Shown piece after piece: positions 9,900 to 45,428 of a stretch of DNA of 64,000 nt. Source of the DNA: Pseudomonadota bacterium (GTDB lineage: Bacteria; Pseudomonadota; Gammaproteobacteria; JAKAQQ01); assembly GCA_021798115.1 (NCBI GenBank), contig JAJZYM010000001.1:44421-108420 (forward strand), read 5' to 3'. Position numbers and translations under genes: made by a program. Under the pieces are notes generated by a model, which was not told the DNA's origin, ran no database searches, and saw only the letters and a list, made by a program, of their open reading frames with translations. The stretch's first letter is position 1, and each line of letters starts with the position of its first letter.

Positions 9900-9913
9900 G
9901 CGACGGCAACGGA

Positions 9914-10854: not shown

Positions 10855-11379
10855 TCAGGTCGCCTGGCGGTGCCGGGCGGCGGCCACCACGGCGCGGGCC
10901 TCCTCGACCCCGGCCCAACCGCGTACCTTCACGAACTTGCCCGTTTCGTGCGCCTTGTACTGCTCGAAAAAATGCGCGACAGTCGCCCGCCACCAGTCAG
11001 GGACATCGGGCAGATCCCTCCACCCGTCGTAGGCGGGTGTGAGTTTGGTCGTTGGCACGGCCACGACCTTCTCGTCCTCGCCTTTCTCGTCCTGCATGAG
11101 AAGAACGGCCACGGGCCGCGTGCGTAGAAGACTGGCGGGGAGCAGCGGGTAGGGCGTGGGCACAAGAGCGTCGAGAGGATCGCCGTCGTTGGCGAGCGTC
11201 TCGGGGATGTAACCGTAGTTGCAGGGATAAACCATCGCCGTGCTCAGGAAGCGGTCGACACGAAGGAGGTGCTGTTCTTTGTCGAACTCGTACTTGACCG
11301 GCAGCCCCTGGGCGGGGATTTCGACGAGGACGTCGAATTCACGGTCGGCGTCGTCGGACGGGCGGGAACGATCGGTCAT
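10855..11379 (-). CDS. ppa: inorganic pyrophosphatase
   Basis: [21 protein letters not shown]...[22 protein letters not shown] matches family I PPase motifs. The start was taken at MTDRSRP. Confidence 0.85.
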
Positions 11380-22245: not shown

Positions 22246-23424
22246 GTGGGCGAGAACTTCATCTTCACGTCCGAATCGGTCTCTGAAGGGCACCCGGACA
22301 AGGTCGCCGACCAGATTTCGGACGCCATTCTCGACGCCATCCTCAAAGACGACCCGCGCGCGCGCGTCGCCTGCGAGACCCTGGTCAAGACCGGCGTCGC
22401 CATCGTGGCCGGCGAGGTCAGCACCCAGGCGTGGGTCGATCTCGACGATCTCGTCCGCGACGTGATCCGGGACATCGGCTACACGAGCTCCGACGTCGGC
22501 TTCGACGCCCAGACCTGCGGCGTCATCTCCCTGATCGGCAAACAGTCGGTCGACATCAGCCGCGGGGTCGACCGGGAGGCCCCCGAGAAGCAGGGGGCCG
22601 GCGACCAGGGACTCATGTTCGGCTACGCCAGCGACGAGACCGAGGTCCTCATGCCGGCGCCGATCACCTACGCGCACCGCCTCATGCAGCGCCAGTCCAC
22701 CGTCCGCCGTCAGGGGCTTCTCCCCTGGCTGCGCCCCGACGCCAAGAGCCAGGTCACCCTGCGTTACGAAAACGGCCGGCCCGTCGCCTGCACCGCGGTC
22801 GTTCTCTCGACCCAACACGATCCGGACGTGAGCACGGGCGACCTGGTGGAAGCGGTTCACGAACTCATCATCAAGCCCGTGCTTCCCGCCTCATGGATGA
22901 CCCGCGAGACGGCGGTCCACATCAATCCCACCGGACGCTTCGTCACCGGGGGCCCGGCCGGCGACTGCGGCCTCACCGGCCGCAAGATCATCGTCGACAC
23001 CTATGGGGGGATGGCGCGCCACGGCGGCGGAGCCTTTTCCGGCAAAGATCCCTCGAAAGTCGACCGCTCGGCGGCCTACGCCGCGCGTCACATCGCCAAG
23101 AACATCGTCGCCGCTTCGCTCGCCCGCCGCTGCGAAGTGCAACTCGCCTACGTGATCGGCCAGGCCGAGCCGGCGGCGGTCCAGATCGAAACCTTTGGAA
23201 CGTCGTCCCTGGACAACACCGCCCTCACCCGTCTCGTACGTGAACACTTCGATCTCACCCCGCACGGCATCATCCGGTCCTTGGACCTCATACGGCCCAT
23301 CTACCGCAAAACTGCAGCGTACGGACACTTCGGACGCCCCGATCCCGATTTCCTCTGGGAACAGACCGACAAGGCCGAGATCCTCCGGGATGCGGTCCCG
23401 ACCCGCGCCCTTCTCCAACACTGA
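22246..23424 (+). CDS. metK: S-adenosylmethionine synthetase
   Basis: GTG at 22246 is preceded by GGAGG. The translation [31 protein letters not shown]...[22 protein letters not shown] is near-identical in motif content to E. coli MetK. Confidence 0.9.
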
Positions 23425-23436
23425 GCCGAGGTCCCC

Positions 23437-24855
23437 ATGGCCGCCTTTCCCGCCCCCGCTTCCGAGGCCGTTGTCCGCGACCTGTCCCTCGCTCCCTGGG
23501 GACGCCGTGAAATCGAACAGGCCGAGAGCGAGATGCCGGGGCTTGCGGCACTGCGCACCCGGCTGGCCCCGGCCCAACCACTCGCCGGCGCGCGCATCGC
23601 CGGCTGCCTTCACGCCACGGTCGAGACCGCCGTCCTCGTTGAGACCCTTCTTGCCCTGGGCGCCCGGGTGCGCTGGTCGTCCTGCAACATTTTCTCGACC
23701 GAAGATCACGCCGCCGCGGCTCTTGCGGCACGGGGGGTCGCCATTTTCGCCAAGAAAGGCGAAACACTCGAGGAATACTGGACGTACGTCCACCGCACGC
23801 TCGAGTGGACGGCCGCGGGAGCGCCCGGACCCACGCTTCTCCTCGACGACGGGGGCGATCTCACGTCTGTTCTCCTGCTCGGAGCGGACGCCGAGAACAA
23901 TCCCGCGCTCCTGCGCCACGCGGCGAACGACGAGGAACGGGCACTCAACACCGTCGTCCAGCGCACCCTGGCCGCGGACCCGCACTTTTATTCCCGTCGC
24001 CTCGCCGACGTTCGCGGCGTGAGCGAAGAGACAACCACGGGCGTTCGGCGCCTTTACGAGCGCGCTCGCCAAGGGCGCCTTCCCTTCCCGGCCATCAACG
24101 TCAACGACGCGGTCACCAAATCGAAGTTCGACAATCTCTACGGCTGCCGTGAATCCCTCCTCGACGGGATCAAGCGGGCCTGCGACGTCATGATCGCGGG
24201 CAAACTCGCCGTGATTCTCGGCTACGGTGACGTCGGCAAAGGCTGTGCCCAGGCGCTGCGCGCGCTCGGCGCCCGGGTGGCCGTCACCGAGATCGATCCG
24301 ATCTGCGCCCTCCAGGCGGCAATGGAAGGCTACGCCGTCGTCCGGCTCGAGGACGTGGTGGCTCAAGCCGACATTTTCGTCACCGCCACGGGCAACGTTG
24401 GCGTGATCCGCCACGAACACCTCCTCGCCATGAAAGACCGGGCCCTCGTTGCCAACATCGGTCACTTCGACGCGGAAATCGACATTGCTTCTCTCCGCCC
24501 CTACCCCTGGACGAACATCAAACCCCAGGTTGACGAAGTCACGCTCCCGAACGGCCGCCGCCTCATCGTGCTGGCCGAGGGACGGCTCGTCAATCTCGGC
24601 TGCGCCAGCGGGCATCCCAGCTTCGTCATGTCCGCTTCCTTCAGCAACCAGGTCCTCGCGCAGATCGAGCTCCACACGCGCGCCGCTTCCTACACACCCG
24701 GGGTTCACGTTCTCCCGAAAAAACTCGACGAGGAGGTCGCGCGTCTGCATCTCGACAAACTCGGGGCCCGACTCACCACCCTGAGCCCCGAGCAGTCCGC
24801 GTACCTCGGCATCGACCCCGAAGGGCCGTTCAAACCGGACCATTACCGATACTGA
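23437..24855 (+). CDS. ahcY: adenosylhomocysteinase
   Basis: ...LLDDGGDLT..., a [14 protein letters not shown]-binding motif and C-terminal ...PDHYRY at 472 aa. It sits 12 nt after metK (the operon). Confidence 0.9.
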
Positions 24856-24899
24856 GCCGCACGGTGCCCACGGGGTCTCCTCGCGGGCGTGCCCGACCG

Positions 24900-25840
24900 T
24901 CACGTCACCCCGCGAGTCAGCTCCTCGAGTCCTTCCTCCAACCCGATCCCGGGAAGCCATGGCTCTTCGCGCAGACGGCCAATACCGGCCCGCGAGAAGC
25001 GAATCGCGCCCGTGGGCTCGGGGACGAAACGGTCGCAAGAGGACGTCGGGCGGCCCGTTCGAGCCGGCAAACGAGTTCCCGCACGCTCACCGACTCCCCG
25101 CGCGCGACATTCACCACCCCGTGGATCTCTCCGAAAAGCGCACGGGCGTTGACGCGCGCAACGTCCCGCACGTGGACAAAATCCCGCTCCTGCAGTCCGT
25201 CGCCGTGCACTTCCAGGGGATCTCCCCGGGCCAGGCGGGTGAGGAATTTCGCGATCACCCCACTGTACGGCGACGCGGGATCCTGGCGGGTGCCGTAGAC
25301 GCTGAAGTCGCGCAACCCCAGCGTCGGATACCCGTGCGGCCGCGCGTAGAGATCCGCGTACGCCTCGTCGACGGCTTTCTCGAGTCCGTAGGGCGACAGC
25401 GGGACGCCCGGAGCCGTTCGGCCACGGGCACCGGGCCGGGATCCCCGTAAACCGCTGCCGAAGAGACGTAGACCAGCGTGCCCCCGCCCGCCGGGCGGCA
25501 TCGAGAACGGCGACGTACCCGAGCACGTTCTCGGAACAGGACGACACCGGGTCCTGGACGCTCCGCTCCACAGAGACCTGGGCGGCCCGATGCAGGACAT
25601 GGGTGACCCCCTGCATGACCCGTTCAAGAAGCGCCGTATCGCGAATGTCGCCGCGGACGAACTCGAGCACCGGATGCACGGGCAGATTCGCCATCCGCCC
25701 GGTTCTGAGGTCGTCGACCACACGGACCCGCTCTCCTTCCGCAAGAAGGAAATCGACGGTAGGCGATCCGATGACCCCCGCCCCACCGGTGACAAGGACG
25801 AGGGGAGGACGGGACGGCGATGCCGTCACGAGACAACCCC
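24900..25840 (-). pseudogene. NAD-dependent epimerase/dehydratase, apparently frameshifted (frame A-B-A)
   Basis: The Rossmann N-terminus VLVTGGAGVIGSPTVDFLL and the C-terminus IGLEEGLEELTRG are in one frame (ORF 24900..26261). The central catalytic part PYGLEKAVDEAYADLYARPHGYPTLGLRDFSVYG (YxxxK region) is in another (ORF 24917..25795). Confidence 0.5.
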
Positions 25841-25965
25841 ACGCGGAAGCGCAGGCAGGCGCCGCCCGCCCCCCGACCCCGCCGCACGGGTTCCGGGAGC
25901 GACGAGAGGCCGCAAACCCGGGGGGGTTCCTGTCCCTCGCCTGGGCGCCGACAGGCGGCAGCGCC

Positions 25966-26649
25966 CTAGCGATCCTTCCTCTCACCGCGTTGACGAAGCC
26001 GGACGAGGGTCGTCCCATCACCCACCGGGAGGAGGACGGCCTCGACGCGAGGATCGCGGTGGACCTTGTCGTTGAACGTCCGCAAAGCCTCGGTCTCGGC
26101 GTCGCGGACAGCCGGATCCGCGACCGCCCCACCCCAGAGGGTGTTGTCCACCAAAAGAAGTCCTCCCGGCCGCAAAAGGGCGAGGATGCGCTCGTAGTAA
26201 GCGGCGTACGATTCCTTGTCGGCGTCGAGGAGGGCGAGATCGAAAGGCGGCACACCCTCACCGCTCAGCGCCTCGAGGCTCGCCATCGCCGGAGCCAAGC
26301 GGAGTTCGATCTTCTCGTCGACCCCGTAGGAGCGCCACCACGTGCGCGCCAGAGCGGTCACGTCCGGGTCGCGATCCAGCACCACACAGCGGCCTTCGGG
26401 CGGCATCGCCAGCGCCACAGCGAGAGCGCTGTAGCCGGTGAAGACACCGAGTTCGAGATAACGGCGGACCCCGAGAAGACGCACGAGCAAGGCCAGAAAG
26501 GCCCCCTGCTCAGGCGAAAGCTGCATGTCGGCGTCAGCCCGCTCGGCCGTTCTCTGCCTCAACGTGGCCAAGGCTTCGGGCTCGTGCCAACCGACGCGCT
26601 GCATATAATCATAGAGCTGCGTCCCAAGAGTGAACGAGCGTCGCGACAT
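25966..26649 (-). CDS. class I SAM-dependent O-methyltransferase (caffeoyl-CoA OMT family)
   Basis: ...YLELGVFTGYSALAVALAMP...VVLDRDP...LLRPGGLLLVDNTLWGG matches the SAM-binding motifs. The start was taken at MSRRSFTLG. Confidence 0.7.
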   Translation of the reverse strand: MSRRSFTLGTQLYDYMQRVGWHEPEALATLRQRTAERADADMQLSPEQGAFLALLVRLLGVRRYLELGVFTGYSALAVALAMPPEGRCVVLDRDPDVTALARTWWRSYGVDEKIELRLAPAMASLEALSGEGVPPFDLALLDADKESYAAYYERILALLRPGGLLLVDNTLWGGAVADPAVRDAETEALRTFNDKVHRDPRVEAVLLPVGDGTTLVRLRQRGERKDR

Positions 26650-27454
26650 GAATCGTCCTCTTCCGGACACCAATCAAACGACCGATTGTAGCAATCCTCA
26701 CCGGTCGAGAGCTCTGGAGGTGGCCGTTCTCTCGGACCTTCATCTGACGGCGCGCCCCGCGGTCCGCTTCCGCGGCGTGGACACGCACACGAGCCTTGAA
26801 CGCGTCCTCGAGGCCGTCGCGGCCGTCCCTCCCGATGTGGTCCTTCTCACCGGCGACCTCAGCCACGACGGCAGTGAACAAAGTTACCGGGCGCTCGCCT
26901 CTTTGCTCGCCCCCCTGGGCCGTCCGTGGTACGCCCTCGCCGGCAACCACGACGAGCCCGCGGAGCTGATGCGGATCTTCGGGCCCGAGCGACTCCTCGA
27001 CGATCTCGTCGCGGGTCGCTGGCGACTCCGCGGGCTCACGAGCGCCGTCCCCGGCCGCCTCGAGGGTCGGCTGGGCACACGCGATCGTCAGCGCCTCCTC
27101 GAAGATCTCACCCACTCCGACCAGGACTGGATCGTGGCCCTCCACCACCACCCGGTCGCGACCGGGAGCGGGTGGATCGATGGCTCGATGCTTGAGGGTG
27201 CCGAGGGGTTCCTCGAACTCTGCGCCGCCTCGGGTCGCGTGCGGGCCGTTCTCTACGGTCACATCCACGACGCCCGGGACGTGCGACGCGGACCGCTCGC
27301 TCTCTACGCCACCCCCTCGACGTGCCTGGCGTTTCCCCACCCCTCGCCGGGGCTCGACGACCTGCACCCCCCTACGCCCGTCGGCTGGCGGAGGATCCTG
27401 CTCCATCCCGACGGACATCACGAAACGGAGGTCCATTGGCTCCCCCCCGCCTGA
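26648..27454 (+). CDS. metallophosphoesterase (CpdA/calcineurin-like phosphodiesterase family)
   Basis: VLSDLHL...LLTGDLSHDG...LAGNHD...ALHHHP...YGHIHD matches the metallophosphoesterase signature motifs. The start is uncertain because it would abut the divergent OMT start. Confidence 0.6.
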   Translation: MNRPLPDTNQTTDCSNPHRSRALEVAVLSDLHLTARPAVRFRGVDTHTSLERVLEAVAAVPPDVVLLTGDLSHDGSEQSYRALASLLAPLGRPWYALAGNHDEPAELMRIFGPERLLDDLVAGRWRLRGLTSAVPGRLEGRLGTRDRQRLLEDLTHSDQDWIVALHHHPVATGSGWIDGSMLEGAEGFLELCAASGRVRAVLYGHIHDARDVRRGPLALYATPSTCLAFPHPSPGLDDLHPPTPVGWRRILLHPDGHHETEVHWLPPA

Positions 27455-28032
27455 AGCACGCCACGCCCGAGGAAACACTCGTCGCCTACTACCGCCTGCT
27501 GCGCACGCACGGGCTCAACGACGCCCACAGCGGGAACGTCTCACTCTGTGACGGGGCGCGCGTCTGGATCACGCCCACCGGAGCCTGCGCCGATCTCCTC
27601 GAACCCGGGGAGATCCTGTCCTTCCCGCTGGCCGAGGCTCCTCCTCAGGGGTCGTCTCTCGACGCCCCGCTCCATCGGGAGACCTACCGGCGCAACCCCG
27701 AGGCCCGCGCGGTCTTCCACGCCCACGGCGTCTACGCCCTCGCGCTCAGTCTTGTCTCGGAGCGCATCCACCCGATCGACTTCGAGGGGGCCTACTATTT
27801 CAGCGACGTACCGATCCTCGACGTGCCCTACGCTGATTACCTCCGTCTTGCGCCCGGACGCGTGGCGGAAACCCTTCGTGATCATCCGCTCTGTCTCGTC
27901 CGCGGCCACGGACTCTACGCGTGGGGGCGCACCCCCGACCAAGCCTACAAATGGATCTCGTCCTTCGAGAGCTCGGCGCACCTGGTCGCGCTGGCCCGGC
28001 TGCTCGGCGCAGCGGAGCCAAAGTCGCCCTGA
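27436..28032 (+). CDS. class II aldolase/adducin-domain protein
   Basis: ...HSGNVSL... and ...VFHAHGVYALALS... with metal-binding His residues. The proposed TTG start at 27436 overlaps the upstream gene's end, but no ATG is available and the start is uncertain. Confidence 0.55.
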   Translation: MAPPRLKHATPEETLVAYYRLLRTHGLNDAHSGNVSLCDGARVWITPTGACADLLEPGEILSFPLAEAPPQGSSLDAPLHRETYRRNPEARAVFHAHGVYALALSLVSERIHPIDFEGAYYFSDVPILDVPYADYLRLAPGRVAETLRDHPLCLVRGHGLYAWGRTPDQAYKWISSFESSAHLVALARLLGAAEPKSP

Positions 28033-28105
28033 TCGGCCCGCCCTCCCCGGCGACGGGGGACATCTTCTCCCTTAGGCTCACGGCGTCCCCCCGTGGAGCC
28101 TTCCC

Positions 28106-29596
28106 GTGCGCACGACCGTCCACGCTCAGGAGCTCCTACGCGCGATCGACCGCTCGCTCACCGCTCTCGAGGCGTCTCTGCGCCGAGGCCACAGCGAAGA
28201 ATTTCGTGCGTATCTCCGTGTCATGGCGCGCTTTCACCGCTACTCGAGCCGCAACGTCTGGCTCATTCTGCGCCAGCGTCCCGGGGCCCGGCTCGTCGCC
28301 GGCCACGTGCGTTGGCGAAGCCTCGGCCGCCACGTCCGTCAGGGCGAGCGGGGCATCGCTATCCTGGCACCCACGACGAGGCGTCGGCTCGACGCATCCA
28401 GCGGCCGTGAGGAACGCCACATCGAAGGCTTTCACGTCGCCCGCGTCTGGGACCTCGAACAGACGGACGGACGACCGTTGCCGGATTACATTGGCGCCGG
28501 GATCGACGGACAGCTTGATCCCGACACCCTCAGGCGGGCGCTTGAGACCCCCCCCGTCCCGGTCCGCTTCGCCGCGATCCGCGGCGACGGGGAGACCGAC
28601 GGACGGGAAATCCGTCTCGCCCCGGATCTCTCACCGGCCCGTACGCTTGTCGCCCTCGCTCACGAATGGGCCCACGTTCTCCTCCACTTCCGACCCGAGA
28701 GCGACGGGGCGGATCTTCCTGCCGAGGCACGCGAGCTCGAGGCGGAAGGGACCGCCTACGTGGTCGCCGCCCATTTTGGGATTGCGGACCGTTCGGGTTG
28801 CGATTACATCCTCTCCTACGGAGGAAGCGCCGAGAGCCTCGAGCGGCGGATCGAACGGATCCGCTGGGCCTCCGGGACGATTCTCGAGCATCTACGGGTC
28901 CCTGTGGGCGCAGAGGATTCAGGATTGCGCGACCACCTCACCGAGAATGCGTTTCCACTCCTCCCCGAGTCCGGCCCGCTCGGCGAAGGCACGTGCGAAG
29001 CGGGGGCGTCCGCAGGCGGTCTCGAGGAGCACCTGGACATCGCTCCACCAGGTGGCCCGTTCGGCGTAACGCCACGAGAGGCGGGCCTTGGCGGGGAAGA
29101 GGACCTCACGGTACCAGCGCTCGGGATCGGTCTGCCGGGCGAGAAGCGCTTCCTCGCAACGGCAGAGGATCGAGCTCGGATCGGTGATGCCCGGACGCAG
29201 CTCGAGGAGCGAGCGTGCCTCCCCGTGGTCGAAGAGCGCAGCGTAGGTCGGGACTTCGGGGCGCGCGCCGACGAACGTCATGCGCCCCGCGAGGACATCG
29301 ATGAGCTGCGGCCATTCGTCGATCTTGGTGCGCCGAAGCCGGGATCCGATCCGGGTGACTCGGGGGTCCCCCCCGACCGTGAGGGCGGCCCCTCCCATCC
29401 CCGCTCGCATGGTGCGGAATTTGTGAAGCGTGAAGCGACGGCCGCCGCGTCCGAGCCGCTCTTGGCGGTAGAGAACCGGGCGTCCGTCCGCACAGAGGAT
29501 GACGAAAGCGACGACGAGGGCCGGCAACGCCAGGGCGACCAGCAGGACGAACGCCAGGACGATGTCACGTCCCCGGGTACGCCTCACCGGCGGTGA
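28106..29596 (+). CDS. ArdC-like protein: N-terminal ssDNA-binding ArdC-N (DUF1738-like) domain plus HExxH metallopeptidase-like domain
   Basis: ...FHRYSSRNVWLILRQRPGARLVAGHVRWRSLGRHVRQGERGIAILAPTT...VARVWDLEQTDGRPLPDY matches the ArdC-N motif pattern, followed by LAHEWAHVLLH. The ORF stays open to 29596 in GC-rich sequence. The functional protein probably ends near 29000, since the 3' part overlaps the convergent pglC-like gene. Confidence 0.5.
   Translation: MRTTVHAQELLRAIDRSLTALEASLRRGHSEEFRAYLRVMARFHRYSSRNVWLILRQRPGARLVAGHVRWRSLGRHVRQGERGIAILAPTTRRRLDASSGREERHIEGFHVARVWDLEQTDGRPLPDYIGAGIDGQLDPDTLRRALETPPVPVRFAAIRGDGETDGREIRLAPDLSPARTLVALAHEWAHVLLHFRPESDGADLPAEARELEAEGTAYVVAAHFGIADRSGCDYILSYGGSAESLERRIERIRWASGTILEHLRVPVGAEDSGLRDHLTENAFPLLPESGPLGEGTCEAGASAGGLEEHLDIAPPGGPFGVTPREAGLGGEEDLTVPALGIGLPGEKRFLATAEDRARIGDARTQLEERACLPVVEERSVGRDFGARADERHAPREDIDELRPFVDLGAPKPGSDPGDSGVPPDREGGPSHPRSHGAEFVKREATAAASEPLLAVENRASVRTEDDESDDEGRQRQGDQQDERQDDVTSPGTPHRR
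28919..29587 (-). CDS. undecaprenyl-phosphate sugar phosphotransferase (small PglC/WbaP-C-terminal-type bacterial sugar transferase)
   Basis: GTG at 29587 overlaps the TGA of the upstream aminotransferase (GTGA). The sequence LVVAFVILCADGRPVLYRQERLGRGGRRFTLHKFRTM...DEWPQLIDVLAGRMTFVGARPE matches PglC-like motifs. Confidence 0.7.
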   Translation of the reverse strand: MRRTRGRDIVLAFVLLVALALPALVVAFVILCADGRPVLYRQERLGRGGRRFTLHKFRTMRAGMGGAALTVGGDPRVTRIGSRLRRTKIDEWPQLIDVLAGRMTFVGARPEVPTYAALFDHGEARSLLELRPGITDPSSILCRCEEALLARQTDPERWYREVLFPAKARLSWRYAERATWWSDVQVLLETACGRPRFARAFAERAGLGEEWKRILGEVVAQS

Positions 29597-30777
29597 CGCC
29601 CCAGCACGTCCCAGACGACCGCCACCACATCCTCGGCGTCCTCGTCCGCGAGCCCGGGATGAAACGGGAGACTCAGGAGCCTCCGGCCTGCCTCGTGGGT
29701 CCTCGGCAGATCGCCGGGCTGGTAACCGTAACGCTCTCGGTAGTACGGCTGCTCGTGAAGCGGGAGGAAATGCACCGAAGCGCCGATCCCCCGCTCCTGG
29801 AGCTCCTCGAGAATCGTTCCCCGCTCGGCGTCGAGCGCCTCGAGAACGAGACGGACCGGGTAGAGATGGTGGGCGCTCTCCACCCCCGGGCGTGTCACGG
29901 GCCGACGCAGCCAAGGGCAGTCGGCAAACCGAGCGTGGTAGAGAGCGGCGAGTTGCCGCCGCCGTTCCTGGAAGCCGGCAAAGCGCTTGAGTTGCACGAG
30001 GCCGAGTGCCGCCGCCACATCGGTCATGTTGTACTTGTAGCCCGGGGCCAGCACGGCGTACGACCACGGACCCCCGCGTTCGTAGCGACGGTAGGCGTCG
30101 CGGCTGAGACCGTGCAGGGCCAGCGGACGAGCTTTCTCGAGGAAAGCCGGATCGGCAACGAGAAGACCCCCCTCGCCGGTGGTGAGGTTCTTGGTCGCGT
30201 AGAAGCTGAACGCCACCGGATGACCTCCGACCCCCACCGGTCGCCCGCCGCTCGAAGCGCCCAGGGAATGGGCGGCATCCTCGACAAAAAGGAGATCGCG
30301 GGCGGCGCAGAGGGCACGCAGTGCGTCGAGCTCGGCCGGATGCCCGGCGTAGTCGACCGCGATCACGGCCCGCGTGCGCGGACCGATGCGACGGGCGACA
30401 TCGTCGGGATCGAGCGTGAGGACATCGTCGAGCACATCGGCAAACACCGGCCGCGCCCCAAGATGTTCCACGACGTTGGCGGTCGCCGCAAACGTGAGCG
30501 AAGGCACGATCACCTCGTCGCCGGGGCCGATCGCGGCGACGGCGAGGGAGAGATGCAGGGCGGCCGTGCACGAGCTCAGGGCCAGCGCCTCGGTCACGCC
30601 GATCGTCTCGGCCATCGCCCGTTCGAAGGCGGCCACACGCGGACCCGTGGTCAGCCAGCCGGAACGCAAAACCTCGACGACAGCGTTGACCTCATCCTCC
30701 CCGAGACACGGAGGAGCGAGGGGAAGATAGCCGCGGCGTGGACGCGGCGGAGACGAAACGGGCGTGTTCACGACGAA
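29584..30777 (-). CDS. DegT/DnrJ/EryC1/StrS family PLP-dependent sugar aminotransferase
   Basis: ...LSSCTAALHLSL...EVIVPSLTFAATAN...FSFYATKNLTTGEGG.... The start is approximate, with no clear ATG near the expected N-terminus. Confidence 0.75.
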   Translation of the reverse strand, partial: FVVNTPVSSPPRPRRGYLPLAPPCLGEDEVNAVVEVLRSGWLTTGPRVAAFERAMAETIGVTEALALSSCTAALHLSLAVAAIGPGDEVIVPSLTFAATANVVEHLGARPVFADVLDDVLTLDPDDVARRIGPRTRAVIAVDYAGHPAELDALRALCAARDLLFVEDAAHSLGASSGGRPVGVGGHPVAFSFYATKNLTTGEGGLLVADPAFLEKARPLALHGLSRDAYRRYERGGPWSYAVLAPGYKYNMTDVAAALGLVQLKRFAGFQERRRQLAALYHARFADCPWLRRPVTRPGVESAHHLYPVRLVLEALDAERGTILEELQERGIGASVHFLPLHEQPYYRERYGYQPGDLPRTHEAGRRLLSLPFHPGLADEDAEDVVAVVWDVLGRHRR

Positions 30778-31994
30778 GATTCGAAACGGGGATCGACAGC
30801 GCGCGCGAAGAGGGCTCGCGTTGCGCGGTAACCGATCGATCGAGCATACCAGCAACGGGCCGCTTCCGCCAGGGGGCGGAGTCGTTCAGGCTCATCCACG
30901 AGAAGCAGGCGAAGAGCGCCCACGAACGCCGCGCGATCCCCGGCCGGAACACTCACGCCCGCCCCGCTCCGTGCGAGAAGATCGGCGGTGTCGCCCGTCC
31001 CCGCAAAGAGCACGGGGCAGCCTTGCGCCAGATAATCGTAGACCTTGCTTGGCAGAGCCTCCGCAAAGAAAGGAACGGGGACATAAGCGTGCAAGCCCAG
31101 GGCGCAGCGCGCAAGCACCGCCCGGCAGATCCGTCTCGGGAGCGCCCCGAGCGCGTGGACGTTCGCCCCGCAGGCTCGGGCCCGCGCGACGAGCGGCGCT
31201 TTTTCCCCCGCCCCGATCATGAGCAGCCCCACCTCGGGGCAATCGGCAAGCGCCGCAAAGGCGTCCAGAAGAAACGCAACGTCGTTGGCGCGACCGTAAC
31301 CTCCGGCGTACACCGCCCAGCGACGGACTCCTTCGGGCAGGGGCGGCAGAGGGACCTCCCCCGCAGGCATGGACGGTGGAGCATCCGGAGCCAGATAGAC
31401 GTCGGCGTTCGGGAGCAGCGTGAGCTTCTCCTCGGGCACGCCCTCGGCACGCAAGCGGCGTCGTTGTCCCGGCGTCGCGACGAGAAGGTGATCGGCACGC
31501 CGGCGCAGACGTCGGGCCAGCGCGCCGAGAAGACGGGTCACGGCTCCCGGGCGCAGCACTCCCAGGGCCAGGGCCGTCTCGGGGTAAAGATCGCGTTCGT
31601 CGAGCACGAGCCGAGCGCGCTTGAGACGCGCCAGACCGGAAGCCAGAGGCACAAGGGGGAAGGGATCGGTGCCGACGAAGACCACCGAACAGGAGCCCGT
31701 CGCGACGCCGGCGAGCACGAAGGCACCCACAGCAAAAAGCCCGTAATGGAGGACGCGTCGGAGCAGGCTCCGACGGTGGTCGACGAGCCCCGGGGCTCTG
31801 AGGATCCGCAGATCCGGGTCCGCCGGCCGCCGGGCCAGCGCACGGCCCGTCATGTAATTCGTGCGGGCGGTGACGACGGTGACCCGCCAGCCCAGATCAC
31901 GAAGGAGACGAACCTCCATCCACGGCCGAAAGGCGCCCACGTCCTCATCGTCCGGAAGGTGATAGCTCAAAACCAGGACGTGCGGTCGACTCAC
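30768..31994 (-). CDS. glycosyltransferase family 4 (GT-B)
   Basis: 408 aa whose C-terminal half has GT4 features (...VYAGGYGRANDV...PSKVYDYLAQGCPVLF...). The GTG start overlaps the TGA of the upstream gene. Confidence 0.7.
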   Translation of the reverse strand: MSRPHVLVLSYHLPDDEDVGAFRPWMEVRLLRDLGWRVTVVTARTNYMTGRALARRPADPDLRILRAPGLVDHRRSLLRRVLHYGLFAVGAFVLAGVATGSCSVVFVGTDPFPLVPLASGLARLKRARLVLDERDLYPETALALGVLRPGAVTRLLGALARRLRRRADHLLVATPGQRRRLRAEGVPEEKLTLLPNADVYLAPDAPPSMPAGEVPLPPLPEGVRRWAVYAGGYGRANDVAFLLDAFAALADCPEVGLLMIGAGEKAPLVARARACGANVHALGALPRRICRAVLARCALGLHAYVPVPFFAEALPSKVYDYLAQGCPVLFAGTGDTADLLARSGAGVSVPAGDRAAFVGALRLLLVDEPERLRPLAEAARCWYARSIGYRATRALFARAVDPRFESSS

Positions 31995-33109
31995 CGTCCG
32001 GCCAAGGCCTCGCGGACAGCGGCCACAATGCGGGCCACGTCTTCGTCCGTCAGTCCGTGGTGAACGGGAAGCGACAGGACACGGGCGGCCAGGGTCTCGG
32101 TCACCGGGCAGGGGGGTGCGGCGGAACCCAGCGCGGCAAACACGGGCTGCTGGTGCACGCCACGCGGGTAATGAACAGCGCTTGGAACACCCCGTGCCGC
32201 GAGACGACGGGCGAGTTCGTCGCGGTCCATCCCCGCGGCGTCGGGGTCGACGACGATCGTGTACTGGTGCCAGGCGTGCACCCCCCCCGTGGTCACCGTC
32301 GGCAACCGCAGTCCCGCAAGGTCCGCCAGACCTTCCCCAAGCAGTCGGGCGTTCCGCGCCCGCCGCTCAAGCATCGCCGGGAGACGGCGAAGCTGACTGC
32401 GGCCGATCGCCGCTTCGACGTCGGTCATGCGGTAGTTGTAGCCGAGAACGGTGTGGAGATATTTGCCGGACTGACCGTGGCTGCGCAGAAGGCGCAGACG
32501 CTGGGCCAGTTCGCCGTCCCCGGTAGTGATCATCCCGCCTTCACCGACGAACAGGTTTTTCGACGGGTAGAAGGAATAGCAGACGGCGTCACCGAGGGCG
32601 CCCACGTCGCGCCCGTGGCATCGGGCCCCGTGCGCCTGAGCGGCGTCGTAGATCAAGAAAAGACCGTGCTCGCGGGCGAAGGCGGCGTAGTCCTCATGCA
32701 CACAGGGGTTGCCGTAAAGATGAACGGGAGCGATCGCCCGTGTGCGGGGACCGAGACGGCGGCGGGCATCGTCAAGATCAAGATGGAACGTGACCGGATC
32801 GACATCGCAGGCGACGACTTTTGCGCCGACAAGCGCCGCCATGGAGGCCGTGGCGACGAACGTAAACGAGGGAACGAGGATCTCGTCGCCCGGCCGGAGG
32901 AGAGCGTGGTAAACGAGGTGGAGCGCGGCCGACCCGTTCGCGCAGCTCACGGCGTGCGCGGCGCCGGTGGCGGCGGCGAATTCCTTCTCGAAGGCGGCAC
33001 ACTCGGGTCCTTCGCGCAACGCACCGGAACGCAGCACAGCGACGGCCGCCGCAATGTCCTCTTCGGAGAGGACGATCTGGGCCATGGACAGGGGACGGGT
33101 CTGATTCAC
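31991..33109 (-). CDS. DegT-family sugar aminotransferase (WbpE/WlbC-like, UDP-3-keto-sugar transaminase)
   Basis: ...VSCANGSAALHLVY...EILVPSFTFVATAS...YSFYPSKNLFVGEGG... at 372 aa. The ATG overlaps the stop of the upstream oxidoreductase. Confidence 0.75.
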   Translation of the reverse strand: MNQTRPLSMAQIVLSEEDIAAAVAVLRSGALREGPECAAFEKEFAAATGAAHAVSCANGSAALHLVYHALLRPGDEILVPSFTFVATASMAALVGAKVVACDVDPVTFHLDLDDARRRLGPRTRAIAPVHLYGNPCVHEDYAAFAREHGLFLIYDAAQAHGARCHGRDVGALGDAVCYSFYPSKNLFVGEGGMITTGDGELAQRLRLLRSHGQSGKYLHTVLGYNYRMTDVEAAIGRSQLRRLPAMLERRARNARLLGEGLADLAGLRLPTVTTGGVHAWHQYTIVVDPDAAGMDRDELARRLAARGVPSAVHYPRGVHQQPVFAALGSAAPPCPVTETLAARVLSLPVHHGLTDEDVARIVAAVREALAGR

Positions 33110-34104
33110 GAAAGAGCCTCAAGTTGATCGAGCAGGGTATGAAGGGGAACCGATTCATCGAAACCCGCGACGGGCGGAGGCGTTTGGGCCCGCGCCGCGT
33201 CGAGAAACACGCGGGCCTGGCGGAGATAGAGGTCGTCGCCGGGCGGGGGGAGTACCGTGCGGCCGGCGCTGTAGTCCCCGCCCCCACCCAGACTGTGGAC
33301 ATACGAAGGACGGTCGGCTTCGATCGACCCCCAGAACGTACCACGCTCGCCCTCGAGCTCGACGAACTGGACGAACCCGGGGCTCAGGAGGTCGCACGCC
33401 ACATGGAACGGGCGTCCCTCCCGGTCCACGTAGAGGAGAAGCACGGCATCTTCGGCGTCGGCCGCCACGTCTTCGCCATCGATTCGGCGCCGTCCTCGGA
33501 GCAGACGGCGATCCAGCAGGCGGACTTCGCGCGGAGGGCCAACGTACCAGAGCAGAAGATCGAGCATGTGGACCGCCATCTCGCGCAGCGCCCCACCTCC
33601 CTCATCCCGCCGGTGCTTCCACGCGCGGTGCGAGCCCCGCCCGCCGAGACGGAACCAGCCGTGGACGAGTCCGCCAAGAGGGCCCGCTCCGGGATCATCC
33701 TGCGCCAGCCGGCAAAGGCGCCGTCCTTCGGCGAACACAGCGGCGTGACGGTAGAGATAGCCCACCATCCCCACGAGACGGCGCTTTCGTGCGTCGTCAG
33801 CCAAAGACGCGGCTTCGGCAGCGTTGCCCGCAAGAGGCTTTTCACACAAGCAGTGTTTGCCGGCGGCCAGAGCCTGGGCCACAAGATCGGCGTGGCTCGG
33901 CGTTGGCGTGGCCACAACCACAGCTTGGGCGCGATCGCTCCACACCGCCGCGACGTCCAGGGGGTCGAGACCGAGACGCTGGGCCAGATCCCGCGCCCGT
34001 CCCGGGTCGGCGTCGGCGACGGCGATGCGCTCGACACCGGCGGCCCGGAACGCCCGGGCGTGCTTTTCTGCCTGTTTTCCCGCTCCGAGGATTGCGATGT
34101 CCAT
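33106..34104 (-). CDS. Gfo/Idh/MocA-family NAD-dependent oxidoreductase (WbpB/WlbA-like UDP-sugar 3-dehydrogenase)
   Basis: [19 protein letters not shown]...AVVVATPTPSHADLVAQALAAGKHCLCEKP matches the Rossmann and EKP motif. Confidence 0.7.
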   Translation of the reverse strand: MDIAILGAGKQAEKHARAFRAAGVERIAVADADPGRARDLAQRLGLDPLDVAAVWSDRAQAVVVATPTPSHADLVAQALAAGKHCLCEKPLAGNAAEAASLADDARKRRLVGMVGYLYRHAAVFAEGRRLCRLAQDDPGAGPLGGLVHGWFRLGGRGSHRAWKHRRDEGGGALREMAVHMLDLLLWYVGPPREVRLLDRRLLRGRRRIDGEDVAADAEDAVLLLYVDREGRPFHVACDLLSPGFVQFVELEGERGTFWGSIEADRPSYVHSLGGGGDYSAGRTVLPPPGDDLYLRQARVFLDAARAQTPPPVAGFDESVPLHTLLDQLEALS

Positions 34105-34739
34105 CAGGTCTCAGCCTCGTCCTCGAGCCAGCGGTCCCAGGAGCGTGCGCGGTTGCGCTCGCGCAGGGACGCGGGCAGCGGGACCCAGCGGGCCGGCACA
34201 CCGCGAACGAGCATCCCGGGCGGTACGTCCTTGGTCACGACGGCTCCGGCCGCGACAAAGCTTCCCGCACCGATGCGGACGCCCGGGCAGATCACCACAC
34301 CGGCGCCCAGCGTGACGTCGTCCTCGAGAATGGGCCCTTCGGGCCGGTAGGTCGCCCGCTGCCGCAGCGGGTAGCGATCGTTGGTGAGCGTCGCGTGAGG
34401 GCCGAGAAACACCCGACTCCCGATCGTGGTGTCGGTGGGAATGTAGCAGCCCGTCTCGATCTTGACGAAATCGCCGATGCGGGTGCGCCCGTCGAGGACA
34501 CTTGCCGTTCCCACCATGACGTGGGCCCCAAGGACCGTTTCCTCACGGATGAGCACGTTGTGGCCGGTGGCAAAATCCTCCCCCGCACGGACATCACCGT
34601 AGATGATTGTCCCGGAACGGATGCGGGCACCGCCCTCAAGAACGAAGGGGCCGCACTCAGGACGGTAACGCACGCCGAGTCGGCAACCCGGATCCACCTC
34701 GGGGGGGATGGCCGCCTGAAGATAATGCTCGTCACCCAC
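34104..34739 (-). CDS. left-handed beta-helix (hexapeptide-repeat) N-acetyltransferase (WbpD/WlbB-like)
   Basis: Hexapeptide repeats run throughout (…[61 protein letters not shown]…). Confidence 0.7.
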
Positions 34740-38313: not shown

Positions 38314-38870
38314 CCAGTTTGTGTGCACGGCACCTTCCATCCCCGCTCGGCCAGATCCGCAAGAATCCGCATCGTCACTTCCTCGGGAGTGCGCCCGGTG
38401 GTGTCCACAACCAAGTGAGCCAGTGCTTCGTAATGAGGAACGCGGGCGGCGTTAATCGGGGCCAGCACATCCAGCCCACGGGAAAGCAAAGGGCGTACGG
38501 TGTCTCTGGCCAGTCTCTTCCGTTGTTCCTCCTCCGTGACCGCGCAATAAACCACGGTTGTCTTCCGGGCGAGAAGAAGGCGGTTTCGGGCGAGGAGCAC
38601 AACCCCCCCTCCGGGCGTCAGAACACAGGGTGAGGCCTCAAGAACGCTTCTCAAAAGCTGGCTTTCCCAGCGACGAAATTCTCGCTCCCTGCCCGTGGCA
38701 AAGAGCGACGTGATGGGCATCCCGAGGCGCTCCTCGAGAAGACGATCGAGATCCACATGTGAGCGCCCCAGGCGACGGGCCAGAAGTTCGCCTACGGTGG
38801 TCTTCCCGGCCCCCATCGGGCCGATCAAACAGAGCGTCGTGTCCCGGACGGAACGCCGCGACTCCGTCAC
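38310..38870 (-). CDS. aroK: shikimate kinase
   Basis: LCLIGPMGAGKTTVGELLARRL is a Walker A motif. The protein is 186 aa and its ATG overlaps the upstream stop. Confidence 0.85.
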   Translation of the reverse strand: MTESRRSVRDTTLCLIGPMGAGKTTVGELLARRLGRSHVDLDRLLEERLGMPITSLFATGREREFRRWESQLLRSVLEASPCVLTPGGGVVLLARNRLLLARKTTVVYCAVTEEEQRKRLARDTVRPLLSRGLDVLAPINAARVPHYEALAHLVVDTTGRTPEEVTMRILADLAERGWKVPCTQTG

Positions 38871-40300
38871 GGACGCGGGTTGGGCGTCCCGTCCGTCACC
38901 CGTTCGCTCAGAATCCCCCCGGGGGTATGGCTCAGAACCTCAAGACGGGCGTCCCGACCATAGACCTGGACGGTGTAGCACCCTCGCTCGGCATCGGCGC
39001 CGAAAAGGCAGGATCCGCTAGGCGCCAGAACATTCGGAACGACAGCGACCCGAGGGGCCACAACACGCCCTCCAATAGCCCGGAACTCGAGACGGGTCCC
39101 GGCCGGGAGAGAACGCCCGCCAGCGGAGGTGACCGAAACAAGAGCGCTATAGCCACCGACCAACGGACGGCGTGAGACGAGGCGAATATGAACTCTGTCC
39201 CCGACGACGGCGAAAACGGCACGGCCCCTCAGAGGAGACCCAGCCTCTTCGGTCCGTGCACGAACCCAAACCTTCCCGTACCCCTCCGAAGCCAGCGTCG
39301 AGGCGTTTTCCTTCCAGAGGACACGGCATTGCCCATCACGGAGGACACAGCTCCGGAGAAGAGTCCCGCGGCTGGCTCTCAGGACGATTTTTGTCCCGTC
39401 GGCAAGAGGTATGCCCTGGCTCCCGTTGGCAACGATGAGGAGGGATTCGGACGCACGACCGTCCAGCGTTCCAAGGTTCAGAACGGTCGGGACCACGGAG
39501 AGAGAGGCCGTCTGGATAGAGGCAGCAGCATGAAAGGCTTCCGACACACTTCCGACGCCAGGCCCGTTTCTACCGACCAACCGGGCCAGGACCCGAACCG
39601 ACCCGCCGACGGCGGGGACGGTCAGCATCCCAAAAACTGTTCCTCCCGGACCGCTGCGTACAAAGTGGGTGCTCAACAGGCTCTGTGACCCACCGAGTAC
39701 GGAGAGTGCAACGGAGCGCCCGGGTTCGGGCGTGCCTTGCGGATTGCGGACAATGAAACCGACACGGACGGCCGTCCCTGGACTTATGAAACGCGGCGGA
39801 GCATCGACCCGTGGCACAACCGCATCGACCACGGCGGGCGACGAGGAGGAGATCGTGATGGTTCCGACCGCGATGAGATTGGAGCCGTTCACCTGGGCCG
39901 TGGCTTGAATGGTGTCGGTCCCGCTGCATCCGGTTCCCGCATTGTACGTGGCCACCGCTTCGCCCGAGGCATTGGTCGTCACGCTGGAGGTGATCGTCGC
40001 CTCCTTGTTAAGCACACAGTTCGAGCTGAAGTTCACCGTTGTGGGGACCGTGTACGCCGCTCCGGTGCTGTACTGGAGCACGGCGGTCACGGTGGCCGTT
40101 CCTCCGGGGGCAATCGTCGACGGACTCACGGCAAGGGCGCCGCTGGTGAAGGCTCCGTTTACCACGCTGCCCATCTCGAGCTGACCCGCGGCTTGGGAGG
40201 TCGAAGTAAAGCCCTGGCTCCCGCCGCAGGCGGCCAACAAAAGGAGAAGTCCTGAGGCAAGGAAGAGACGGAGAGCGGGACGGGACGTTGTGGCGTTCAT
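38867..40300 (-). CDS. lipoprotein with repeated Ig-like (Big-type) beta domains, function unknown
   Basis: Signal peptide with lipobox LLLLAACGG. The Ser/Thr/Gly/Val-rich beta-strand repeats contain Cys pairs. It sits between pilQ and aroK, co-directional and abutting both. Confidence 0.5.
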   Translation of the reverse strand: MNATTSRPALRLFLASGLLLLLAACGGSQGFTSTSQAAGQLEMGSVVNGAFTSGALAVSPSTIAPGGTATVTAVLQYSTGAAYTVPTTVNFSSNCVLNKEATITSSVTTNASGEAVATYNAGTGCSGTDTIQATAQVNGSNLIAVGTITISSSSPAVVDAVVPRVDAPPRFISPGTAVRVGFIVRNPQGTPEPGRSVALSVLGGSQSLLSTHFVRSGPGGTVFGMLTVPAVGGSVRVLARLVGRNGPGVGSVSEAFHAAASIQTASLSVVPTVLNLGTLDGRASESLLIVANGSQGIPLADGTKIVLRASRGTLLRSCVLRDGQCRVLWKENASTLASEGYGKVWVRARTEEAGSPLRGRAVFAVVGDRVHIRLVSRRPLVGGYSALVSVTSAGGRSLPAGTRLEFRAIGGRVVAPRVAVVPNVLAPSGSCLFGADAERGCYTVQVYGRDARLEVLSHTPGGILSERVTDGTPNPRP

Positions 40301-40337
40301 GGGGGCTTCTCCGGAACGGAAACGGCGCGGGACGAAA

Positions 40338-42485
40338 TCAGTGGACGGCGTGCAGGCTGGAGCTCAGAATTTTCGGGGTTACGAAAACGAGCAGCTCCGC
40401 CTTGTCGTTTTGCACTTGGACACTGCGGAACAACCAGCCAAGGAGGGGAATATCACCCAGCAGCGGAACCTTGTCGACCGTGCGGTTGCGGGTGGTCTCG
40501 TAAATGCCGCCAAGGACAACCGTGTCACCGTTGTCAACAAGCACTTGGGTGTGAACCGAACGCGTGTCGATGGCGGGGACTTCACCTCCTGTCCCAGTCG
40601 GAACCTCCTGCCCGACCGTGTCGTTGCGGACCTCAATGGCCATAACGATACGGTTGTCCGGTGTGATTTGCGGAGTCACCTCGAGTCGGAGAACAGCTTT
40701 TTTGAACGCCACAGCGGTCGCTCCGCTTGACGCGGCTTCCTGATAAGGAATCTCGACACCTTGCTCAATCAGCGCCTTTTGCTGATCCGCGGTGATCACT
40801 CTCGGGCTCGAAACGACTTCCCCAAGCCCTTGCGACTGCAGGGCCGAAAGTTCCAGATTGACGAGGTAATCGGAGTTCAAAATGCCCACAGCGAGCGTTC
40901 CCACAGGATTGGTGGCCGGAACGTTGACGCTCAGTTGATCGTTGAGCGCCGGAGGCGTAAGAGGGAAAAACGATCCCGTGCTGTTGTAGTTGGTCAGCGC
41001 GGACTGCTGGATCGTATTGTTGCCGTTGAGATCACCGGACGTGGTGAGCAGGCTCTGTGACCCAAGCTGGTGCACACCGGCGAGACCAATCTGGGCACCA
41101 AGCGCCCGGGTAAAGGTGTCGTTCGCCACGACGATCCGGGAAGAGATGAGAACCTGTTTCACAGGAATGTCGAGCGCACGCACCATGCGACGGACCGCGT
41201 GCAAACGCGCGCGCGTGTCGCGCACGATCAGCATGTTGGTCCGAGGATCAACGGAGACGCTGCCGCGGTGACCCAGCAGATTTTTCTCGCCCTGAATGAG
41301 CGAGGCCAGAGCCCCCGCCTTGGCATAGTTGATCGGGATGAAGGTGGTGTGCAACGGACTCAACGCAGCCAGAGTGCTCGCCGACTGGGCTTCGAGTCGG
41401 GCTCGCTGGGCCAACACCGCTGCCGGGCCGACCATAACCACGTTGCCCTGGCGGATCATCGTGAGTCCTTCGGTCTCCAGAATGATGTGAAGCGCTTGAT
41501 CCCACGGAACATCGTGCAGGCGCAGCGTGATGTGGCCGTGCACATCGTCCGCAACCACCATATTCAGCTTGCTGACATCGGCCAAAATCTGCAGCACCGC
41601 ACGGACGGGAATGCTCTGGAAGTCGAGGCTGATGCGCCGCCCGGTAAACACGCTCTGGCGGAGACGGGCCAAAGCCGCCGCCGTGAGCGGCTTCAGTTCC
41701 ACCGCAAAAACACGGTTGGTTTGGAAGGCCAGCTGCTGAAAATGACCGACACCCCGGATTCGGATCTCGGCCGCTCCGTCTGGCAGCTGTCGGGCGCTGA
41801 AGGAGCGAACAGGCGTGGCAAAATCCGTCACGAGGTAGCGCCGGCGCAGATTGCGCCTGAGATGCGTGTGCGGAAAGAGGACGGTCAGCCGGTTCCCGAC
41901 TTGGTGGACGAGACCGGTCACGGACGACGAGCTGAGACGAACATAGATCCGCCCCGCACCGTAGGCCGTGCGGCGGAACCGGAGACTCAGGATGCGGGTG
42001 ATCAAGGACGGAGCCGTTGGTGATACGGCGGAGGGTTGAGACGCGGCGAGAGCGGCAACCTGGACGCGGGACGCGCGTCCGAGCGTGAGATCGATGTCTT
42101 GTCCGTGCACGGACAAACGGTAGGGCACCATCCGCCTGAGATTCACCACAACACGTGTCCGCACCCCCTGCGCGGCCAGCATGACGTTCCGCACCACCCC
42201 AATGTGGATCGGTTCAATTTCGTGGTGAACCGCAAGGCGCATGGCCGATAGGTCCAGCGCTACGTACGGAGGATTGATCACCGAGAAGGCAAAGGGACGA
42301 GACAGCCTGCCTTGCACGTGGAGCACAATGCGCACCCGGTTGCCGCTCAGACCGAAAGCGTGGACCGCGGTCAAGGTCCCAGCGACGGGAGCCGCCCACA
42401 CAGGCGCGGTCACGAGAGCCGAGGAAAGAAGCAGCGAACCGCCGATCGTCCACCACCCTCGTGCCGAAGAAATGCGAAGCGCCAT
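40338..42485 (-). CDS. pilQ: type IVa pilus secretin PilQ
   Basis: 715 aa with N-terminal AMIN/N0-N1 domains and a secretin C-domain (...TNMLIVRDTRARLHAVRRMVRALDIPVKQVLISSRIV... ...VPLLGDIPLLGWLFRS...VFVTPKIL). Confidence 0.9.
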   Translation of the reverse strand: MALRISSARGWWTIGGSLLLSSALVTAPVWAAPVAGTLTAVHAFGLSGNRVRIVLHVQGRLSRPFAFSVINPPYVALDLSAMRLAVHHEIEPIHIGVVRNVMLAAQGVRTRVVVNLRRMVPYRLSVHGQDIDLTLGRASRVQVAALAASQPSAVSPTAPSLITRILSLRFRRTAYGAGRIYVRLSSSSVTGLVHQVGNRLTVLFPHTHLRRNLRRRYLVTDFATPVRSFSARQLPDGAAEIRIRGVGHFQQLAFQTNRVFAVELKPLTAAALARLRQSVFTGRRISLDFQSIPVRAVLQILADVSKLNMVVADDVHGHITLRLHDVPWDQALHIILETEGLTMIRQGNVVMVGPAAVLAQRARLEAQSASTLAALSPLHTTFIPINYAKAGALASLIQGEKNLLGHRGSVSVDPRTNMLIVRDTRARLHAVRRMVRALDIPVKQVLISSRIVVANDTFTRALGAQIGLAGVHQLGSQSLLTTSGDLNGNNTIQQSALTNYNSTGSFFPLTPPALNDQLSVNVPATNPVGTLAVGILNSDYLVNLELSALQSQGLGEVVSSPRVITADQQKALIEQGVEIPYQEAASSGATAVAFKKAVLRLEVTPQITPDNRIVMAIEVRNDTVGQEVPTGTGGEVPAIDTRSVHTQVLVDNGDTVVLGGIYETTRNRTVDKVPLLGDIPLLGWLFRSVQVQNDKAELLVFVTPKILSSSLHAVH

Positions 42486-42491
42486 GGCCGG

Positions 42492-45329: not shown

Positions 45330-45428
45330 GGTCGTGGGCTCTTGGTCCTATCTCTATGAATACCCTAAGGTTGGACGAACGAGTTTTCTCTTTCCCTTAA
45401 CATCTCGGCCTTAACTATAGCGCATTCC

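Follow-up and report, generated by a model that had tools for sequence, protein, structure and literature searches.

Within a 64,000-nucleotide stretch of DNA (the window) from a gammaproteobacterial assembly of the Pseudomonadota (GCA_021798115.1, contig JAJZYM010000001.1, positions 44,421 to 108,420), we analyzed a long forward-strand open reading frame (ORF) of 496 codons that begins as an ArdC-family protein and then runs antisense through a complete pglC-like gene encoded on the opposite strand. The combined evidence from domain searches, comparative genomics, and substitution patterns makes it probable that an ArdC-family gene of 271 codons and a pglC-like gene, both of them genuine, converge at the locus, that the ArdC-like gene is ancient and has been kept vertically, and that the remainder of the long frame is an unconstrained read-through tail.

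Profile searches against Pfam assigned the N-terminal part of the product to ArdcN (PF08401; residues 8-97, 31-32 bits with the gathering cut-off at 22.6, E about 1e-7) and the following part to the Peptidase_M78 (IrrE-like) family (PF06114; residues 161-224, 27.5-28.8 bits with the cut-off at 22), the latter segment including the HEWAH motif at residues 186-190. The MPTase-PolyVal family (PF18818) produced no Pfam match on the ORF even at E <= 10, NCBIfam returned no family for the core, and the sole match in PHROGs was a generic "anti-restriction protein" located on the N-terminal domain. A profile built from the protein and its homologues matched the structures of the R388 ArdC (6SNA and 6I89) across both domains with an E of 4e-11, IrrE being found far behind. 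The HMMER alignment to 6SNA placed H186/E187/H190, E210, and Y234 opposite the ArdC residues H201/E202/H205, E229, and Y255, which have been reported to comprise the metal ligands, the catalytic base, and the substrate-stabilising Tyr (PMC7213743). E210 lies within an ExxA helix motif (E210-L-E-A213), and all five active-site residues were invariant across the 119 aligned family members. Structure prediction was consistent with these results: the AlphaFold model based on the 119-member alignment exhibited a predicted local distance difference test (pLDDT) score above 90 over residues 1-265, and its top match in Foldseek was ArdC (E 1e-7, probability 1.00). The global TM-scores against ArdC were low, which suggests a partial superposition, perhaps with the two domains oriented differently.

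These observations agree with the first-pass annotation, in which the product had been called ArdC-like, with a single-stranded DNA (ssDNA)-binding N-terminal domain and an HExxH metalloprotease, the call being borne out by Pfam, by the R388 profile match, and by Foldseek. The search that it had proposed against the ArdcN and ArdC MPTase models was positive for the first, above the cut-off, and negative for the second, the protease domain scoring as M78 instead of MPTase-PolyVal. The M78 score and the absence of MPTase-PolyVal assign the window protein to a short "ArdC-like/ImmA-IrrE" subfamily, not to the canonical R388/RP4-type ArdC. This subfamily is large, its members span 260-300 residues, and they are named in their sources as "ArdC family", "ArdC-like ssDNA-binding domain-containing", or "ImmA/IrrE family metallo-endopeptidase". 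As judged from sequence, the first 271 residues are an ArdC-family protein, an ordinary member that appears unusually domesticated.

The first-pass annotation had also described ArdC-type proteins as typical of conjugative plasmids and of integrative and conjugative elements (ICEs), a description that holds for the relatives of the window protein. Matches to the ArdC-like family were found in 1782 plasmid records (1349 over at least 80% of the core; 758 conjugative and 666 mobilizable), and the nearest short homologues adjoin a RES-Xre toxin-antitoxin pair, an AcrVA2-like gene with a HicB-like antitoxin, or a phage capsid gene. The family is thus overwhelmingly borne on mobile elements.

The genomic context of the window gene was examined in three full lineages, namely the window itself, L001 (equivalent to L088-L091, and including GCA_041825655.1), and L002 (equivalent to L003, with L104 as an additional contig of the same lineage). 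A genome scan for further lineages yielded one partial close relative at a contig end, L008 ("Proteobacteria bacterium YF2.bin84"), in which the contig is cut after 99 codons of the ArdC-like gene, and a metagenome scan gave only relatives of at most 51% identity over a meaningful length. In the L001 and L002 lineages, collinearity extends over 25.9-37.6 kb of the window with a nucleotide identity of 76-77%, and L008 is collinear at 81%, so that collinearity of the locus across L001/L088-91, L002/L003/L104, and L008 spans 75-81% nucleotide identity. The ArdC-like gene occupies the same slot in the three full lineages and in the partial fourth. Between the three full lineages, the ArdC core (78-82% amino-acid identity) exhibited a synonymous substitution rate (dS) of 0.70-0.91 and a ratio of nonsynonymous to synonymous rates (dN/dS) of 0.16-0.18, and in the same comparison eleven neighbouring genes exhibited a dS of 0.64-1.29 and a dN/dS of 0.07-0.23. 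In both measures, the core is not distinguishable from its housekeeping neighbours. Its composition is likewise fully ameliorated, with GC and third-position GC (GC3) matching the host (GC3 of 0.76 in the core against 0.73-0.83 in the neighbours).

The window carries the genes of a core chromosome, including pel genes, rpsI/rplM/ppa, pyk-pgk-gap-tkt, ahcY, and gmk-hemE-aroB, as well as pilM/pilQ, a class A penicillin-binding protein gene (mrcA-like), gltA, proC, pilT/U, and recG. The search for direct or inverted repeats flanking the ArdC-like gene retrieved only short chance matches, and no integrase, relaxase, or transposase gene was met among the about 40 window ORFs scanned, a scan that was not exhaustive; within that same limit, the insertion sequence remnant reported in the first-pass annotation was not encountered. 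Of the two origins that had been offered for the gene, a chromosomal role for a domesticated ArdC-like protein is favoured by the synteny in three to four lineages, by the dN/dS of the core, and by its neighbour-like dS and GC3, and a mobile-DNA insertion, taken as a recent event, is argued against by the missing repeats, the missing adjacent mobile-element genes, and the ameliorated composition. The comparison of synteny with related genomes had been named there as a check as well: the orthologous loci hold the gene in the same place, and a clean non-overlapping end was never seen.

The outgroup Natronospira bacteriovora (L094) retains the metK-ahcY ... OMT-phosphoesterase-aldolase block, followed by unrelated genes, and has no ArdC-like gene there. 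In this genome, the slot after the aldolase (7738-8640) is taken by a TraB/PrgY/GumN-family gene, followed by rubredoxin-thiD-thiE-hemL, which indicates that the junction downstream of the aldolase was rearranged between lineages. Outside the clade, the nearest aldolase homologues reach at most 57% identity and come from Gammaproteobacteria. The ArdC-like gene is located at a clade-specific synteny junction; we infer that it was acquired anciently and has since passed down vertically as one of the host's own genes, and it is possibly the sole survivor of the element behind the rearrangement.

The overlapped interval tells a different story on each strand. The PglC-like protein matches Bac_transf (PF02397) over residues 7-192 with an E of 3e-43, together with an NCBIfam match of the EPS_sugtrans type, and its gene exhibits a dN/dS of 0.22-0.23 with a dS of 0.73-0.91, inside the range of the neighbours. 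Differences between the window and L001 were distributed over the three pglC codon positions as 41/33/94, that is, they fall mostly on pglC position 3, which corresponds to tail position 1. When the same columns are read in the tail frame, the dN/dS rises to 1.4-1.8, and the identity between lineages is 46-51% for the tail against 74-77% for PglC. The last 225 residues have no Pfam match at E <= 10; they are rich in Gly, Glu, Arg, Ala, Pro, and Asp, with an acidic balance of 48 D/E against 26 R/K, and the AlphaFold model assigns residues 281-496 a pLDDT below 50 and no secondary structure, the tail being predicted as disordered. The short homologues end at positions equivalent to residues 265-285 of the window protein, codon 272 faces the stop codon of pglC, and more than 1900 family members conform to the length norm of 260-300 residues without such a tail. 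Where the two frames overlap, the genuine coding frame is that of pglC, and the tail is a shadow ORF devoid of protein-level constraint, as the substitutions in the overlap track pglC alone.

The extent of the overlap agrees with what had been noticed at first sight. The first-pass annotation had placed the ORF correctly at 28106-29596 and had described the frame as open for about 600 nt past the expected ArdC length and antisense through the PglC-like gene; measured here, the frame continues for 678 nt beyond the end of the ArdC homology, covering all 669 nt of pglC and 9 nt more. It ends 10-13 nt within the 3' end of the adjacent DegT gene, 7 nt past the pglC start, at a point that coincides with the change of antisense register at the DegT gene.

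The openness of this frame is expected from codon usage. The ArdC-like and pglC frames are in register (28919-28106 = 813 = 3 x 271), and for this reason a stop in the forward frame would require a TTA, CTA, or TCA sense codon in pglC. These three codons together account for only 9 of the 3747 local codons (0.24%), and their near absence in this 68% GC genome explains why the antisense frame of pglC is open. Given the Leu and Ser content of pglC, the probability of finding no antisense stop was 0.60-0.64 for the window and 0.67 and 1.00 for L001 and L002, respectively, with a joint value of about 0.4, and fully open in-register antisense frames were present in 7/11, 6/11, and 11/11 control genes in the three lineages. 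The stop-avoidance test, resting on three full lineages only, has almost no power. The openness of the tail does not exceed the chance expectation in high-GC DNA. The near absence of the same codons also accounts for a chain of long forward-strand shadow ORFs opposite the sugar operon (29593-34350; 29593-30831, 30738-32063, 32057-33127, and 33124-34350) and for a 715-residue reverse-strand ORF (22891-25038) antisense to ahcY.

Several alternative explanations of the locus were weighed. The first-pass annotation had suggested that the long 3' end may reflect a frameshift or fusion, and the tail is neither of these, nor a functional domain: a frameshift is dismissed because the ArdC homology stays in frame to its natural end, a sequencing error because the stop-less arrangement recurs in independent assemblies of the three lineages, and the extra 225 codons bear no domain and no constraint. 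The notion of an error in sequencing or assembly, for example an indel near 28900 hiding the true stop, could draw on the two apparent frame switches that a nearby epimerase gene shows in the window; however, the assemblies sharing the in-register arrangement derive from different samples (L096, L001, L088-L091, and L002/L003), and the other two forward frames likewise meet no stop until 50-90 codons beyond 28919, so that this explanation, already contradicted by the data, retains a practically negligible probability. The ArdC-like gene could instead be the decaying remnant of a recent plasmid, ICE, or prophage insertion, its lost stop marking pseudogenisation. The mobile habit of the family, the position at a synteny breakpoint, the frameshifted epimerase 2 kb away, and the presence in the core of 3 of the rare TTA/CTA/TCA codons, of which the local count is 9, would fit such a remnant, but its position is identical in three to four lineages with a dS of about 0.8, its dN/dS resembles that of the housekeeping neighbours, its catalytic and family-invariant residues are all intact, its GC and GC3 match the host, and neither flanking repeats nor integrase, relaxase, or transposase genes accompany it in the ORFs scanned. 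The data already contradict this explanation too, which we regard as very improbable.

The remaining alternatives concern where the protein ends. If the 496-residue product were a genuine two-part protein, its tail would be translated and functional, with the frame kept open by selection, for example as an acidic disordered tail modulating ssDNA binding. The lack of an in-frame stop in three lineages despite about 25% nucleotide divergence, the single linker indel seen, which is a multiple of three, the strongly acidic character of the tail, and the lack of a terminator between the genes all point in this direction. Nevertheless, the tail-frame dN/dS and the agreement of the substitutions with pglC codon positions, a pglC synonymous rate that is not depressed relative to the neighbours, the openness expected by chance and shared with most control genes, the missing Pfam match, the low pLDDT, and the tail-less length of the rest of the family speak against it, and the acidity itself would be the product of reading a hydrophobic gene with C-ending codons in antisense; a functional tail therefore seems improbable. 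The same low standing applies to a broader proposal, in which ribosomes may translate the 225 codons antisense through pglC in every member of the clade, and the tail may tune or autoinhibit ssDNA binding in the manner of SSB-type acidic tails, or convergent read-through may couple expression of the ArdC-like gene to silencing of the sugar operon. If true, this would be among the longest conserved antisense overlaps in which both bacterial genes are expressed, and an example of a C-terminal extension that arose when a gene lost its stop and ran into the antisense strand of a neighbour. Somewhat better placed, although still unlikely, is a protein ending near residues 265-275, with the messenger RNA (mRNA) terminated or processed after the core by Rho, by collision of convergent transcription, or by RNase III acting on the sense-antisense duplex, the tail being never made or the non-stop products being tagged by transfer-messenger RNA (tmRNA). 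The convergent genes abut without a spacer, which forces their transcripts to overlap or collide. In addition, the core domain needs no residues beyond 265 to be complete, and purifying selection implies a working protein. On the other hand, no intrinsic terminator was found on either strand between 26400 and 30000, translating ribosomes normally block the loading of Rho, tagging and degradation of non-stop products by tmRNA would be hard to square with selection on the core, and no processing site is marked in the sequence. Promoters were likewise not detected on either strand around the junction.

Truncation of the transcript is the main alternative to read-through translation, and the latter, leading into a tolerated junk tail, is preferred because no terminator was found. 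The preferred course of events would begin with fixation of an ArdC-family gene in the ancestor of the clade, which is gammaproteobacterial and uncultured, at the point where two housekeeping blocks meet, namely metK-ahcY-OMT-phosphoesterase-aldolase and the sugar operon with gmk-hemE-pyrF-aroB behind it, and would continue with vertical inheritance under purifying selection. Carrying no stop at its natural end, the gene would abut the pglC stop codon in register, and the ORF would go on for 225 codons through the open pglC antisense until the register changes in the next gene; the tail is probably translated as a junk acidic extension, if the mRNA reaches that far. Several points weigh against this course. 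A selected gene would be expected to keep a defined C-terminus, and here none of the three lineages has a stop codon and the terminator search was negative, so that the location of the C-terminus is not fixed by sequence. No lineage regained a stop, though single-base changes in the linker of roughly 12 codons could make one, which implies that the tail is at least tolerated. The pglC dN/dS is the highest of the twelve genes, and its dS is near the low end, leaving room for a weak overlap effect. A partner such as an XRE-type repressor is not encoded nearby, the ArdC-like activity is a prediction, and the protease site of the R388 ArdC was dispensable for the conjugation phenotype (PMC7213743).

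With the ArdcN domain and the gluzincin active site both intact and under purifying selection, the product is most likely an ssDNA-binding gluzincin protease acting, by analogy, in a mode like that of ArdC, PprI/IrrE, and CapP. It has been reported that ArdC binds ssDNA (PMC7213743), and that PprI (PMC10904395) and CapP (PMC13228613) are activated by it. Judging from the family and its structural relatives, the product would bind ssDNA and then either shield DNA or cleave a protein target when ssDNA appears. The R388 (IncW) ArdC (PDB 6I89/6SNA; PMC7213743) offers the same architecture of ArdcN followed by a gluzincin domain, a colinear profile match, and conserved HExxH, glutamate-helix Glu, and Tyr residues; the window protein is, however, only 16-18% identical to it, and its protease domain scores as M78 rather than MPTase-PolyVal. 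Furthermore, ArdC is encoded in a plasmid leading region, whereas the gene of the window clade is core chromosomal, vertically inherited, and stop-less. An antirestriction role would be assigned by analogy.

The closest relationship is with the short ArdC-like/ImmA-IrrE subfamily found on plasmids of Thermus, Meiothermus, Acidobacteriota, and haloarchaea and in prophages, which shares 35-50% identity over the full core and the same invariant residues. In its members, 0-25 residues follow the last helix, and their genes lie amid mobile-element genes, whereas the gene of the window clade is fixed between housekeeping neighbours and stays open for a further 225 codons. PprI/IrrE of Deinococcus and CapP are ssDNA-stimulated M78/COG2856 peptidases (PMC10904395, PMC13228613), and the window protein shares their M78 domain in Pfam. 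Unlike them, it has no helix-turn-helix (HTH) or GAF-like sensor domains, and its ssDNA binding would come from ArdcN instead. A cognate XRE-family substrate gene of the ImmR, DdrO, or CapH type was not found beside the ArdC-like gene, and no HTH gene is present in 26-30 kb.

The arrangement has a direct consequence for annotation. In the public gene calls of 8/8 contigs with the complete long ORF (L001, L002, L003, L088-L091, and L096), a 496- or 532-residue "ArdC" protein was called and pglC was omitted, and the identical 222-residue PglC appears solely among the calls of L095, in which the long ORF is cut off by the end of the contig. Automatic gene callers retain the long ORF at the expense of pglC, which is a reproducible annotation trap, and pathway reconstructions for these genomes would wrongly lack the priming phosphoglycosyl transferase of the glycan pathway. 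Antisense shadow ORFs are known in high-GC bacterial genomes. Their in-register antisense frames are open through avoidance of TTA, CTA, and TCA, as is the case for nearly every gene in this neighbourhood. In contrast to ordinary shadow ORFs, the tail is joined without a stop to a selected gene, so that it would come with a promoter, a ribosome-binding site (RBS), and ribosomes that read into it, and it outcompetes the true gene in annotation.

The coordinates of the locus are collected in the table below. The surroundings named in the first-pass annotation, a metallophosphoesterase/aldolase pair on one side and a six-gene sugar operon on the other, were recovered with Pfam, the six downstream genes of the reverse strand being Hexapep, GFO/IDH/MocA, DegT, GT4, DegT, and Bac_transf. 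The ArdC-like start lies 73 nt from the end of the phosphoesterase-aldolase block and is preceded by a Shine-Dalgarno (SD)-like GGAG at 28095-28098. At the other end, the GTG start of pglC shares a GTGA overlap with the DegT stop (ATGA in a relative), by which pglC is predicted to be translationally coupled to DegT. The hairpin directly upstream of the ArdC-like start has 9-10 bp, with the SD-like GGAG included in its 3' arm; the helix is kept in four lineages with almost no covariation, and it might mask the RBS or terminate transcription of the aldolase gene.

Table. Features of the ArdC-like/pglC locus, in window coordinates.
Feature	Position	Strand	Remark
CpdA-like metallophosphoesterase	26630-27454	+	Pfam and NCBIfam
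Class II aldolase (Aldolase_II)	27436-28032	+	Pfam and NCBIfam
Hairpin directly 5' of the ArdC-like start codon	28074-28101	+	RNAalifold consensus helix
Long ORF, 496 aa	28106-29596	+	GTG start at 28106, TGA stop at 29594-29596
ArdC-family core coding sequence, 271 codons (predicted ArdcN ssDNA-binding domain, then gluzincin metalloprotease domain), without own stop	28106-28918	+	
HEWAH codons (H186, E187, H190)	28661-28675	+	
Codon of active-site residue E210	28733-28735	+	
Codon of active-site residue Y234	28805-28807	+	
Stop-less read-through tail (shadow ORF), 225 codons and TGA, in-register antisense to the whole pglC-like gene	28919-29596	+	
pglC-like small phosphoglycosyl transferase, 222 aa, final gene of the six-gene sugar operon	28919-29587	-	Pfam Bac_transf, E 3e-43
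DegT-family aminotransferase, upstream of pglC	29584-30771	-	Pfam DegT_DnrJ_EryC1, E 1e-114

Other features of the window were observed along with the locus. The nearby NAD-dependent epimerase (24917-25960, reverse strand), which the first-pass annotation had correctly described as frameshifted, shows two frame switches relative to the intact L002 orthologue, with residues 1-120 in frame -2, residues 140-272 in frame -3 (69% identity), and residues 273-306 back in frame -2. L002 and L104 have an intact copy of the gene, and L001 and L088-91 lack it altogether; what is seen in the window is either an accessory gene in decay or a pair of sequence errors that compensate for each other. A step in GC content separates window positions 1-10000 and 40000-56000 (0.58-0.62; pel genes, pil genes, and the gltA region) from 10000-39000 (0.66-0.71), with one boundary at tRNA-Gln (9826-9899); because both kinds of region hold housekeeping genes, the step looks gene-specific and not like an island. 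Between aroB and pilQ, an ATG-initiated reverse-strand ORF of 477 residues (38867-40300) has no Pfam family, and the ORFs at 10303-11127 and 11920-12780, which gave no match, probably represent shadow ORFs on the strand opposite to rplM/ppa and to the racemase region.

Together, these observations offer a clean case of a mobile-element "establishment" gene kept by a host chromosome under purifying selection of housekeeping level. They raise the question of what use an ssDNA-binding protease is to a cell rather than to a plasmid, at a time when the ssDNA-stimulated M78 proteases PprI and CapP are emerging as sensors of damage and immunity. Additionally, the stop-less junction comprises a natural test bed for the translation and tolerance of shadow ORFs fused to real genes.

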